Source: Euglena gracilis (lineage: Eukaryota). From it: 64,000 bases of DNA. Below are positions 5,500-57,300 of the stretch, one piece after another; within the stretch, counting starts at the first letter, position 1; the number at the start of each line of letters is the position of its first letter. The stretch is taken from the NCBI GenBank assembly GCA_039621445.1, contig CP154954.1, positions 42,592,632 through 42,656,631 on the forward strand, given 5' to 3'. The position numbers were made by a program, and so were the translations under genes. The notes beneath the pieces were generated by a model. It ran no database searches. It saw nothing but the letters and a program-made list of their open reading frames with translations, and was not told where the DNA came from.

Positions 5500-8400
5500 C
5501 GGCGGCGCCTCACGTCCTGCGGGAGAGGGCGGGGAGGGTCCCCGTGTGGCCCGGGGTGGGGGTCGGGTCGGCGGTCGGCAGGTTGGGGGCGGTCGGGGGA
5601 CTGTGTGCCGGGGGGGGGGGTCTTTGGCCGGCAGCTTGACCCAGAGCTCTGAGCCGTCGGTTGGCACGCCCCCACTCCACGGTCGGCGGTATATAATTGG
5701 GATGGCTGGGGGAGGTGGGGAGCCGGGAGGGCAACCCATCGGGTCACCCGGGTCACAGGGGGGAGAACGGGGGGCGAAACGGGGCTGCGTGGAGTGATCA
5801 AACCGCTATCCGAGGACGAAAGCAGTCCCCCCAAGACACACACTCTGTTTTGGGGTTGGGGCCGCGTCTCAGTTCTGGGACAGGTTTTGCTAATTCAATC
5901 GGGCCCTGAAGAAGTCTCAGGATTTGATCAATGAGAAATTAGAACAAAACCTTATTTCCCGAGCATGCATTCGGGAGTAGACGCAAAGCATTTCTCGACA
6001 CTGCACCTTCACCGAAATTAGCCCCAAAATGTTCGTCCAACCGTCTTTGGGCACGTTGGCGATGCATTCACGCATCGGAGCCCCGTTTCAGGCTGCCGGC
6101 GCCAACGCTTCCGCTTGAGCGGCCCTCCCGCCCCCAGCGGCCCGAGGGGTGGCAGGACCACGACGGGCGGGAGGGGGCGGGCGGGGGGCGGGGCCCCCGC
6201 CGACGCCCCAGCGCCGGGCCCCCGCCCCCCCACTGGGACGGCGTGGGCAGGCGAGGCATACGGGCTCTCCCCCAGGCGCAGGGTGCTGATGGGGGACAGC
6301 GTGGCGGCGAAGCAGTCGAGCTCGTCGTCGCTGGGGGTGGGGCTGCCCGCCCGCTTGGGCTGGCGGCCGGCGGCGATGCGGCCAGGGACCCTCCCCACAC
6401 ACAGGGGGTGGGGTGGGGATTAGGGATGGCCCCATATAGGGGGGGACGCTGGCAGGGGGGGCATGTGCGTCACGCTTGTGAACGCGTGACACTTACACAC
6501 CACCCACCACCCACCCAGAGGTACGAGATGCACGATGAGCTCCGCTGCACCGCACGGAGGGCGGGACACAGCGTCGGAGGGCCCTGGGGTAGGCTGGCCT
6601 CTCTCCAGCAGGGCGAGGGTGTCAGTTGTGAGGCACATGGTCAGGTCCAGAGGGTTTGGCGGCACGCCGGTGTCTGGACGGGGACAGCTCCGGGATTCCG
6701 CCGGAGCGGAAGCCCCCCCTGGTGCAGGGGCTTTCTGCATGCTTTCGAAGTCGTTTCGAATTGCACCCACAACCAACAACCGCTTTTCCATTTCATTCAA
6801 ATGATGGATTCCAGCTCCTCGCACGTGACAAACACAATGCAATTTGAGAACGGGTAATGGCCGCCGACCACCGGCAGCCATGATCAGTTCCCAAGTTGCC
6901 CCAAAAAGCATCCGAAAGGCAAAGACTGATGTCCCAACAGTGCGGGCCCCTCCTCCTGCCCCACCTCCACGCCGGCCTGGGCATAATGGGTGCTGGGGGT
7001 TTCAAAGGGGCGAGCGGCTGGGCCCCACTGGCCGTGGGGGCAGCAGCCGATGGGCGACGTTGCGGCGGAGTGGGGGGGGGTGGACCCGCCCCCGTAAAGG
7101 CCATTTTCAAATGCCTGCTCGTCAGTTTGGATCTCGCCAGGACCCAAACTGACCCGGGGGGGGACACCCGCTGTGGGCGTGGCCCCCCGCGGCACAAGGG
7201 ACCCCCGGCGTTGTTGAGCAGAAGGTCGGCACTGCGTGTCAGTGCTTACCAGGGCTGCCCGAGGGAAGAACAATTCCCTCCCCACCACTGCTCCGACCCG
7301 GGGTTGGCTCGAATTTCCTTGAAAAAAATAAGCCTGTGCGGTGTGGGGGGTGTGTGCCGGGGAAAGGGTGGGCAGCCCGAAGTCCGCTCGGGACAGCCCA
7401 ACGCTGGCCGGAGGGGCGGGGGGCTGCGGCCAGGCGTGCCTCACGAGGCGAGGACGATTCTGAATCGTCGGCATCGGGGGCAGACGTCAGCCACCAGCCA
7501 TCGTTTTGTGTTGGTCCCCCACAGCGCTGGGTGGACGAAGGGGCCGAGAACCGGCCAGCGCGGAGACACGGAACAGCCCGCCGAGAACCCCCGGGGGTGG
7601 GCCCCGAAGGCTGCCGCCTGGCGGGAGTCGAACTCGCACACTTCTGTACAGGGGCTGAAGCTGACGGACTTCGGCCCGAGGCGGGAGCCGGTCCCGCAGG
7701 GGGAGCGGGGGGAGAGGGGGAGGGCCAGCGGGGGCACGACGAGGGAGACGGCCGCCGCCGCCGCCTCCGCCGCTGCGGGTGGGGGGTGCGGGGTGCGTGG
7801 GGACAGGCAAGACTTCCGCGGGGTCCACCGCGCGAGGGTCTCCTGTGACGGCGGTGTGATGGATGGGGAGCATCGAGTCCAGGGCGGTCCTTAAGCAAAA
7901 AAAAATCCTGTCCCGATACACTTCAACCGAAAAATAAAGATTTTGGCTGGGGGAATTTTTTGAAAGTTACTTTGAAAAATGAACCCAAAATACATGACTT
8001 TTTGATGGAAAACCACATTTTCCACAAAAAAATCTCCAGAATTTAGGGTTGAAAATTGTTAGTTTTTAGGAGGGGGTCAAAAAAAATGCAGGTCAAAAAA
8101 TGGGACCAAATTTTGGAACACTCAAATTTCTCTTAGATTTTTTCTCTTTGGAAATTTTGGGGATGTTCAATGGCATTTTTTTTGCATCAAAAACCTCTCA
8201 AAATCAAAATTCTGAGAAAATGTTGTTGAATTTTTGGAAGGTGTGAAAAAAACGGGAAAGAAAATTTGCACAAACAAACAGTTTTTGTATTTAGTCCCCA
8301 GGAATCCCAACAATAAATAGTTGAATCTGCTTAAAATCATCAACCCACACATTTTTTCTCGTTTACAACTCAGGTGTGTTGTAAATTGACATAAACCTTC

Positions 8401-54300: not shown

Positions 54301-57300
54301 TCCGGTGGCTGTCCTTGCCTGCTTCCATCCTCAACCCGACCTTGCGATTGGGCCGCCACACGGGAGGAGGGGGAGGAGAGGGGCTGCCAAGGCCGCCCTG
54401 CGTCGTGCTGCAGGAGGGTGACCGCCTCCGCGGTGGGGAAGCGAGCCCGGAGCGCCGCCTCCGTTGCGGCGGCCGGGCAGCCGCTGAGGAACACCGTGCG
54501 GCGCCGCGTGGCCTCGTCCGGGGCCGGGCGGTCCTCCGCTGCTGTGGCACAAGGGGGGGGGCGGGTCCTACCGGGGCGGGTCCTACCGGGGCGGGTCCTA
54601 CCGGGGCGATGGAGCCGGGGACGGGCCCCCAAACCATCCGGAAATCAGCCCAGCCGATCCGCTTGTGCGCCTCGGCTGTGGAATACGGGGGAATCGGGGA
54701 CTTATATGATGGGGGAATGCCCTTTGCATCATAAACATGCCTCCCGCAAAAACCAGAACCCCCAAACCCCCAAGCGAACAATTACAGGCGGGAAAATTGG
54801 TGCTAAAGTAAATTGGATGAATAAAATTTTGGAGATGGAAAAATTGGGCGGTCTCTGCCAAGGGGCTTCCTCACCGCGTGCATTCTGCACCGCATGGCAC
54901 CACACGACAAGAATCAGGTACAACCTAAAATAACTGATTGAGAGAAACACAAAAGTGCCCATGAATTACGCATTTTGGGTGAGTTGGATCATCTAAAGCT
55001 GTTTTTTGGCCTAAATCATCTGGTTTTGTTACCACATCTCACCGAGTCTGTGTGGCAAAAGCAGTGAAAAGTGGCCGAAAGGGGCACGCATAAAAAATGG
55101 CCAGAAGAAGCCAAAAATTGGTGTGAAGGAGCCAAAAATGCATGCAAATAGCTTAAAATGGTCTAAATTGCGATATGCAGAATGGCCAAAAGTGGCCAAC
55201 AGTGGTCCAAAATGGCTCAAAAATGGCCAACAAAGGCCAAAAATGGCTGTTTGCAGGAAATCAGCCCCCCCCAAAATCGAATGCCAATCACTGCAAATTC
55301 GGTGCTGGTGGAAATCTGTGAAAATTGAACATTGGGAATGATTCTTGTCACGCGTTGCACGCGGTGCGCCACGGGGTGCAAGAGGTGTGGGAGCATCCCC
55401 CAAGGGATTTGGTCCGCCAAATTCTGTTTCATTAGAAAATAAGGGTAATTTCTGGAAATAAGGGTAATTTTTGAATAATACCAAACAACACATGAAAAAC
55501 TTGGCAATCTTGGCCAAACGGTACAAATATACTTGGCGGGATTTCTTTCCGCCAGATTTTTCATTCAACTTTGGCCATTGCTGATCCCCCCCCCCAACAG
55601 CACATGGGGGCAGGCTGATTTGGAAGACCTGGTCGGGTGGTCGGCCCCTGGCCCCACAACGGGGAGGTGAGGCTCCTTCGGTACCAACTCCATTGAATGA
55701 AAGAAAATAAAGACAATTGGACCTCAAAAAATTAATCCCTGGAAAAATGGGGAGGGGCTTAGGGGGGGGGGGGAGGGCGGTCGGGCTCCCCCCATACGTG
55801 GTTCCTGAGATTACTATTCAGCCCTGGTGGGCTGTGTAATAAAATACAAATCCTCAAAAAACACCAGTTTCCTGACCATTAAACTTCAGCATTTCATTGG
55901 ACGCAATGATGCCATCGAAGCCACGTTGTTTGGCATTTCCTTTTCTTTTCTTGTGTGTTTCAATGTTTTTCTTCCTGGAGTGTGGTGAACGACGGAGAAC
56001 ATATCTTCTCTCATCGCCTGGGGGGTGGACAAATAATGCACAATAACTAATATATGTTCAAAAAACATCAACAAAACTGAATTTTTCCAAACATTGTCAC
56101 AGAAAAAAAGTTTGAGGGATTTGAATCCGGAGTTACCAATGCGTTCGGCAGGGTTGGGTTCAAACAAGACCACACCTGAGCAACTTCAAACAAGGCACAC
56201 CTGAGCGACTGACGGCCACCGTGAGCCCTTTCAGCGTCACGGCCGACTTCTTCGCCGCAGCCTGTGCCTCCTCCTCGCTGCCGAACACGACGTGGGCCCG
56301 GCCTGTGGGCAGCGGGCGGGGCATCGCCGCAGCCACCGCCACGGGTCAACCCCCCAGCCCCCTCCGTCCCCAATGCCAGCCCGGCCGGCAGCCCGCCTTT
56401 GTGCACGAAGACGACGTCCCGCGCCGCGGGAAGCCCCCAGGGGCCCTCTCTCCGGGCGGGGCAGTGTGTCGCACGGAGCGGCGATCGGCCACCGACGCAC
56501 AACAGCAGCCAACGGGGAACTGGCCCCCAGGGGGGGGGGTTGGACCAGGGGGGGGGGGCGGGGGCGTGGAGCGGGGCTCTGGGCACAGCCGGCGGACCTC
56601 CGCCACGGTGGCGTCGGCCGGGCAGCCAGTGAGGTGGACCGTCCGGGCCCGCCGCTCCGGGCCCGCCTCATCGGCCCCGCCTGTGCCGCAGCGCAGGCGT
56701 GCACCTCCCCATCCCACCCCCCGGAAGGACACCGGCAGAACGTCGGGGGTGTCCGCAACGTGGGGCAGGTGCACAAAGAGAAGAAAGCAAATGGGCGGTG
56801 GAAATGGCTCGCTCGCAGCCGAATGAAAAACACACAGAACAATCCAGAAAAGTGAAATTGGCGCACGCACAACAAAAAAAGAACAGAACACAATGATGCA
56901 AATACAGTGATCTCTCCCAGTCAATTCCAAAGCTGAAACAATCGTTCACTAAATACTTTTACAAAACGACAATGGCTGTCAGTGGCGGGAGACCACTGTG
57001 TGATCGGGGCTGTATTTCACAGGGGTGGACCTTCCACGAAATCGGAAACACCCCTTGCTGTGTCCTTATGCTTCTTTTGTCTGTACCCCCCCTCCCAACA
57101 GTGAGGCGGTTGGCGGCTGGGGTACCCTAGCACTTCACCAAATGTGGTCACCATCAAGCTGAATTTGACCAACCTCGGGGGGGGGGTCTCGGAGTGGTGT
57201 GCCCCCCGGGGGGGGGGGGGGTCGGTGCCTGCCTAGAAACACGAAATTTGCGGGGGGGGGGGGAGGGGCACACGGTGGAGCACGAGGCCCAGCGGGGCGC

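Follow-up and report, generated by a model that had tools for sequence, protein, structure and literature searches.

A 64,000-nucleotide stretch of Euglena gracilis nuclear DNA (contig CP154954.1, positions 42,592,632 to 42,656,631; hereafter the window) carries an RRM-domain gene, a fibrinogen-C-like gene and a rhodanese gene, all interrupted by non-conventional (NC) introns, together with a superfamily of DNA transposons bounded by terminal inverted repeats (TIRs) and 8-bp target-site duplications (TSDs). An earlier note on this DNA had proposed that these introns and transposons share one geometry and form an introner-like, intron-generating system. GC content ranges from 0.40 to 0.66 per 2 kb, microsatellites are abundant, and long clean reading frames are absent throughout the window. 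Two exon-sized frames nevertheless lead, at 100% local identity, to transcript-derived EukProt proteins, P0001 (EG_transcript_13111) and P0002 (EG_transcript_24240), from which the exon structures of the first two genes were mapped. The EG_transcript labels follow the naming used for the E. gracilis transcriptome, and a euglenid source fits the intron types as well.

Intron junctions were placed at the protein level, from P0001 and P0002 rather than from cDNA nucleotides, and for each intron all donor/acceptor pairs that reproduce the protein were enumerated; because the junctions rest on predicted proteins, synonymous junction alternatives are inseparable. The window differs from the EukProt proteins at four residues in the RRM gene and one in the fibrinogen-like gene, probably owing to allelic or strain differences. 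The genes and their NC introns are as follows, with slashes setting off the outer spacers of an intron.

51341-58208, minus strand: RRM-domain gene, EG_transcript_13111, 388 aa (100% identity match; exon map)
56433-56584, minus strand: NC intron I3, 152 nt, GCC/CAG...CTG/GGGGC; single feasible junction pair
56312-56390, minus strand: NC intron I4, 79 nt; protein-level junctions
53132-54403, minus strand: NC intron I6, 1272 nt, sliding over a CGACG repeat; holds the nested element 53562-54321
51842-52197, minus strand: NC intron I8, 356 nt, without GT-AG and without complementary triplets at +4..6/-8..-6
30016-35056, minus strand: fibrinogen-C-like gene, EG_transcript_24240, 202 aa from the Met at 35032 (protein map; weak Pfam Fibrinogen_C match)
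31161-31371, minus strand: NC intron J4, 211 nt, GCC/CAGGCCGTG...CACGGCCTG/CAGCG, with a CAG...CTG core and a perfect 9-bp inverted repeat
30817-31117, minus strand: NC intron J5, 301 nt, GGG/CAG...CTG/AGGAC; GC-AG alternative at 30820-31120
30399-30711, minus strand: NC intron J6, 313 nt, GCC/GAG...CTC/CCCCC; one amino acid differs from the transcript-derived protein
30031-30321, minus strand: NC intron J7, 291 nt, CGG...CCG core with 3+6 nt; protein-level junctions
46525-46785, minus strand: NC intron in the rhodanese gene, 261 nt, GGC/CGG...CCG/CCGCC (domain homology)
46848-48123, minus strand: probable upstream rhodanese intron, 1276 nt; junction constrained by frame and homology alone

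P0001 maps from 58208 to 51344 in ten coding exons separated by nine introns, five of which allow GT-AG junctions (I1, I2, I5, I7, I9) and four of which are non-conventional (I3, I4, I6, I8). P0002 maps from 35032 to 30016 in eight exons; three of its seven introns are GT-AG (J1-J3) and four are non-conventional. The intron proposed in the earlier note at 56433-56584 is exact, this being the only feasible junction pair for I3. Two junctions that had been listed as carrying partial TSD-like relics, 56386/56310 and 54402/53132, proved to be those of real NC introns (I4 and I6) with direct repeats GCTGCC and CGACG. I4 can slide across the GCTGCC repeat through eight protein-level positions within 56307-56392, one of which reads TGC/CGG...CCG/CCCGC, and its 8-nt flanks, CGGGCTGC and CCCGCTGC, are identical at 6/8 bases. 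Around the CAG...CTG core of I6, nine flanking nucleotides are removed (3+6 or 4+5), not eight. For the intron proposed at 30817-31222, the 3′ end was right to the base, and the 5′ end is wrong, falling inside J4 and skipping a 14-aa exon at 31119-31160.

The rhodanese intron was assessed by domain homology. Removal of 46525-46785 joins "...DEDIIVY" to "HSGVRS..." through a split Cys codon (T/GC) that restores the rhodanese active-site Cys, which supports the intron as it had been proposed. In the Pfam rhodanese profile the flanking exons align to positions 17-47 and 69-101, and a middle exon of 20 residues occupies the gap; 46525-46785 falls where one exon's match stops near profile position 68 and the next begins at 69. 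Homology agrees with the 5′ end of the further intron that had been proposed at 47263-48123; its other end, the 3′ one, is probably wrong, because the profile has no room for an extra exon, and 46848 is the likelier acceptor. A protein search with the 34-aa rhodanese exon (44 aa including the intron extension) returned no matches. Of the seven introns listed in the earlier note, one is thus exact (56433-56584), one is supported (46525-46785) and two are half right (30817-31222 and 47263-48123).

The NC introns thus number nine, eight in the two transcript-mapped genes and the rhodanese intron. Complementary triplets at +4..6 and -8..-6, leaving 3-nt and 5-nt spacers, are possible in six of them; two have their triplets with 9 nt of spacer in total, and I8 has no paired triplets, so that the geometry claimed in the earlier note is possible in 6/9 and fails in 3/9. 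No GT-AG or GC-AG option exists among the protein-compatible junctions of I3, I4, I6, I8, J4, J6 and J7, and J5 also allows GC-AG. In minimum free energy (MFE) folds the terminal triplets are paired in 4/8 NC introns versus 0/5 GT-AG introns, with the terminal helix of J4 reaching 11 bp. The window carries genuine NC introns that follow the published code of 3 nt, triplet, complementary triplet and 5 nt.

As a class these introns are nothing new. I3, I4, J4, J5, J6 and the rhodanese intron share the code of euglenid NC introns (Milanowski et al. 2014, 2016; PNAS 2025 splicing code) in lacking GT-AG, in having triplets at +4..6/-8..-6 with 3-nt and 5-nt spacers, and, less surely, in their paired ends, and differences are confined to the two introns that need 9 nt and to I8. 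Genome-wide, the E. gracilis NC consensus is given in PMC11170887 as CCAGG at +3..+7 and CCTG at -9..-6. The published flank consensus is identical at both cuts, Y/R (a purine after the cut) with a C three bases after the cut. Insertions and deletions in knock-ins (PMC12501133) showed the 3-nt donor spacer to be rigid and the 5-nt acceptor spacer to tolerate +1, which fits the two 9-nt introns of the window; the same paper notes a preference for a purine where the acceptor-side exon begins. Circular excision products are also mentioned in a review (PMC11282704), and these would, speculatively, fit an endonuclease-ligase route.

To find the transposons, CA...TG pairs separated by 40-3000 bp were scanned for inverted complementarity at 10 or more of the 12 terminal bases, and 1384 candidates resulted. 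A TSD was called where the k bases before a candidate equal the k bases after it, tests at different k not being nested and low-complexity cases being set aside. Eight exact flanking repeats outside low-complexity sequence were counted for k=8, three for k=7 and one for k=10, and k=5, 6 and 9 had none; in 20 dinucleotide-preserving shuffles, a single exact k=8 case appeared altogether. The eight strict elements are joined by two with perfect TSDs of low complexity, two with TSDs at 6/8 and one with a perfect TSD and a TIR of 8/12. The resulting 13 elements, of 114-2784 bp and listed without strand, are the following.

2938-3365: TIR element, 428 bp, TSD 6/8 (GTGTGGTG / ACGTGGTG); TIR scan
7880-10663: TIR element, 2784 bp, TSD 6/8; TIR scan
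10935-11306: TIR element, 372 bp, TSD GTTGCAAG perfect, TIR 8/12; added beyond the strict scan
11865-12332: TIR element, 468 bp, TSD GGGGGGGG of low complexity, TIR 12/12; TIR scan
17417-17712: TIR element, 296 bp, TSD CACACAAC perfect but of low complexity; TIR scan
29087-29394: TIR element, 308 bp, TSD ATTCCAAT, ends CATG...CCTG; TIR scan
33439-33711: TIR element, 273 bp, TSD ATACATAC, inside GT-AG intron J2, 83% identical to 36840-37106
36840-37106: TIR element, 267 bp, TSD CACGGGGT, TIR 12/12; TIR scan
41359-41531: TIR element, 173 bp, TSD GTCGAGGA; TIR scan
48713-48830: TIR element, 118 bp, TSD GTTGGGTG, ends CATAG...CTATG; TIR scan
53562-54321: TIR element, 760 bp, TSD CTTCCATC, TIR 12/12, nested in NC intron I6
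57544-57657: TIR element, 114 bp, TSD GGGCCAGG, inside GT-AG intron I1
61155-63042: TIR element, 1888 bp, TSD GGCTTAGG, TIR 12/12, holding a 47-bp x 25 tandem array

Eleven TSDs are perfect and two match at 6/8, bearing out the count of at least 12 such elements in the earlier note. CA...TG termini occur in all 13, CAGG at the start in 11/13 and CCTG at the end in 11/13; TIR identity ranges across elements from 8 to 12 of 12, and TIR sequences diverge from position 5 onward. Only two pairs of elements can be aligned over their full length, yet most share a common build of TIR, short spacer and then G-runs and C-runs. All 13 look non-autonomous, because even the 2.8-kb element has no Pfam transposase domain. 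At least 13 non-autonomous DNA transposons of one superfamily, marked by CAGG...CCTG termini and 8-bp TSDs, are present in the window.

Several further observations concern these elements. Runs of eight or more G or C number 135 in the 64 kb, 44 of them inside the 12 elements then listed and 91 outside, and many more decayed copies of the G-run/C-run build are likely to lie in the window. Homopolymer runs near intron ends were considered as a signature for MITEs, or miniature inverted-repeat transposable elements, but rejected, as GT-AG introns carry C-rich tracts and 91/135 runs lie outside elements. A profile of element termini was judged uninformative because CAGG alone is common to them, and a metagenome scan with a 24-nt element terminus gave 0 matches. 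The 1888-bp element contains some 25 copies, 96% identical, of a 47-bp unit (61695-62881), with a long open frame on the minus strand. Short palindromic repeats of the TTGCGCAA and GCAAATAAA types at 42100-43910 produced many false TIR/TSD pairs in a first scan, and this block looks like a local satellite.

Elements and introns agree in several respects. The element termini, CAGG...CCTG, coincide with the E. gracilis NC consensus over four bases at each end, and the spacers of the NC code sum to 3+5 = 8, the length of the TSD; both the arithmetic and the common termini noted earlier are real, and the match is stronger than had been stated. When folded with eight flanking bases per side, ten elements (those starting at 7880, 61155 and 10935 were left out) have paired terminal triplets in 17/20 element-orientations. 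The first exon base predicted by the 3/5 rule is a purine in 21/26 element-orientations against 52.5% expected (p=0.003, post hoc), which matches the purine preference noted in PMC12501133. With both orientations of the 13 TSDs counted, Y is over-represented at position 3, as is R at position 6 (21/26), which hints at a palindromic nnYnnRnn target preference of the transposase. An 8-bp duplicated target cut between its fifth and sixth bases would give exactly the same consensus at both cuts. According to PMC4770533, an NC intron in gapC found in one E. agilis strain only, and recently gained, is bounded by direct repeats of eight nucleotides, longer than in the other introns studied.

These agreements suggest a pathway in which an element inserts into an exon and the TIRs of the transcript form a terminal CAG:CTG helix. 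The NC excision machinery would then make its cuts 3 nt upstream of CAG and 5 nt downstream of CTG, removing the element with exactly one 8-bp duplication, and mRNA and reading frame would be restored without a scar. Later decay of the TIRs and duplications would leave the short paired ends of older NC introns. On balance, these elements or their relatives are given somewhat better than an even chance of being the long-postulated MITE-like source of NC introns, excised with one TSD copy. The broader proposition, that NC splicing acts as excision at the RNA level, is matched to a single transposon superfamily with 8-bp TSDs and CAGG...CCTG ends, and removes every exonic insertion with one duplication, is held more tentatively, at slightly short of even. 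If it is true, gene insertions would be nearly harmless, as each would lose the element and one TSD.

A transposon source for the introns has to be set against coincidence, in which NC introns arise otherwise (from filler DNA at repaired double-strand breaks or by conversion of conventional introns), the transposons are unrelated, and the 3+5 offset reflects the geometry of an RNA-cutting enzyme rather than a TSD. Much in the window weighs against a transposon source. Three of the nine NC introns misfit 3+5. None of the 13 elements is itself an intron, as the earlier note had cautioned, and in silico removal of an element with one TSD opens no convincing coding frame for any of them. The three elements in mapped genes all lie inside larger introns, two GT-AG (I1, J2) and one NC (I6), so that elements occupy GT-AG introns as readily as NC introns. 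When 17 introns were compared by blastn with the window and the elements, none of the NC introns turned out to copy an element family; the sole sequence shared between an NC intron and an element is the nested copy in I6, other matches being nested or unrelated repeats. Full-copy introns, which had been suggested as a check, are thus lacking here, and the introner label is unearned, since its defining feature, introns that copy an element family, was looked for in the window and not encountered. No Pfam transposase domain was found in six reading frames of 7880-10663. The other suggested check, which sets the 8 nt ahead of the 5′ triplet against the 8 nt that follow the 3′ triplet, found 27/64 identities over eight NC introns; mismatched pairs would yield about 22.4 (permutation p=0.14), shifts of -3 and +2 also score 27, only I4 (6/8) looks relic-like at offset 8, I6 reaches 5/8 only with its right flank slid by one base, and GT-AG introns likewise show junction repeats of 3-5 nt. 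There is no significant TSD-relic signal within the window itself. Even with no duplication, a symmetric endonuclease would equally yield an identical consensus at the two cuts, and PMC4770533 interprets the eight-nucleotide repeats of E. agilis as break repair. Coincidence is nevertheless judged unlikely, as it needs four chance matches (termini with consensus, a spacer sum of 8 with a TSD of 8, the exon-start purine, and the 8-nt repeat of a gained intron) and as break repair leaves the inverted repeats at intron ends unexplained.

A host filter would reverse the direction of fit: with the NC machinery in place first, only transposon families that mimic its code would persist in a gene-dense, heavily transcribed genome, so that selection on the elements produced the resemblance, and descent from them would not be required of most existing NC introns. 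The retention of CA...TG termini in all 13 elements despite TIR divergence from position 5 onward agrees with such a filter, as does the fact that the elements fold like NC introns in both orientations. It overlaps with descent of the introns from the elements, because exonic insertions would still be predicted to become NC introns, and nothing in the window separates the two; it is regarded as quite improbable. The identity of the elements is a separate matter. hAT elements typically combine 8-bp TSDs with CAG-type termini, and a hAT-like transposase is accordingly the best guess on footprint and termini. It is rather unlikely, by comparison, that the elements belong to a different superfamily that makes 8-bp duplications (Merlin, P, Zisupton or a Mutator relative); in favour of this, no transposase domain, of hAT or any other type, came up in six reading frames of the 2.8-kb element, and PMC8101967 reports Merlin families with 8-bp TSDs in E. 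gracilis itself. The Merlin TIRs are described there as ending in 5′-GG, whereas the window elements start with CA.

The remaining features of the window are of less direct bearing. Searches with the fibrinogen-like exon against representative proteins found 115 homologues, all alignable only from the domain start; the 38-nt intron proposed at 35063-35100 lies upstream of the P0002 start Met, beyond the reach of these alignments. Fibrinogen-C homology begins at "PRHC" (35033-35056, minus strand), upstream of the Met with which the EukProt protein starts, and the EukProt model therefore probably lacks part of its N-terminus. Beside the rhodanese gene, an exon-like frame at 45122-45463 (minus strand) matches Pfam CFAP77 weakly (E=1.3e-4, profile positions 26-79 of 157) and is probably part of a flagellar protein gene. 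Ankyrin-repeat motifs at 22401-22844 and 23243-23863 (both minus strand; Pfam Ank E=6e-6 for the first frame) mark a minus-strand ankyrin gene. Reading frames listed around 21-24 kb comprise ankyrin-like exons only, upstream of an intron that had been proposed at 21524-21972, and Pfam searches of frames around 5.2-7.9 kb, the region of another proposed at 7490-7616, gave no match. An Rfam scan yielded no family reaching its gathering score.

Repeats are widespread. Part of I6 (53183-53318) is 78.5% identical to 49109-49230, and the interior of element 53562-54321 (53728-54140) shares 69% identity with 54970-55354 in GT-AG intron I5; introns and intergenic DNA have further repeat families in common. 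Very long microsatellites, some of them intronic (I7, J-region), occupy 17716-18332, 20400-21002, 21563-21832, 35248-35485 and 52543-52773, and include (ACA)x207 and several (CA)n of 230-600 bp.

Known systems provide partial parallels. With hAT MITEs of the Ds type, the window elements share 8-bp TSDs, short TIRs starting with CAG and the absence of coding capacity, and they differ from them in interiors rich in G-runs and C-runs and in having no transposase partner found in the window; their sizes run from 114 to 2784 bp. A maize Ds is said to have acted as a de novo intron (Giroux and colleagues, 1994), and introners are reportedly transposon-derived spliceosomal introns (Huff and colleagues, 2016). 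The introners of Micromonas, Aureococcus, dinoflagellates and Amoebophrya, as covered in the review PMC11282704, follow the same logic of an intron made of an element plus one TSD. They consist of many near-identical intron copies and are spliceosomal, whereas no intron in the window copies an element family and excision by the NC pathway is proposed. The Merlin elements of E. gracilis (PMC8101967) come from the same species and share the 8-bp TSD, differing in their termini as noted above.

The transposon origin that the earlier note described as previously suggested has indeed been in print since 2013, when a MITE-like source of NC introns was proposed (PMC3935182); it was repeated in 2018, 2024 and 2025. 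The 2013 paper also noted that euglenid genomes had so far yielded no identified transposable elements (PMC3935182). The 2024 review calls CAG/CTG a "TIR" and the junction repeats "TSD-like" (PMC11282704). A literature search found no report of any euglenid genome with actual elements bearing these termini, none tying an 8-bp transposon footprint to NC introns, and none pointing out that the experimentally tested spacers, 3+5, add up to that footprint. The observation in the earlier note is thus partly confirmed and its interpretation partly supported; a known hypothesis has been made concrete and testable rather than demonstrated, and it stands as plausible but unproven.

The origin and the excision mechanism of euglenid NC introns have been open since the 1990s. 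If the link between these transposons and the introns holds, it would supply named candidate source elements, a quantitative genome-wide prediction and a one-step experiment in the existing EgGSL2 knock-in assay (PMC12501133). A true match between excision and insertion would explain why NC introns exceed half of all introns in Euglena, and the duplicated target would supply two identical cleavage contexts for a symmetric endonuclease. It would also extend the principle that an intron is a transposon plus one duplication from spliceosomal introners to a non-spliceosomal pathway.

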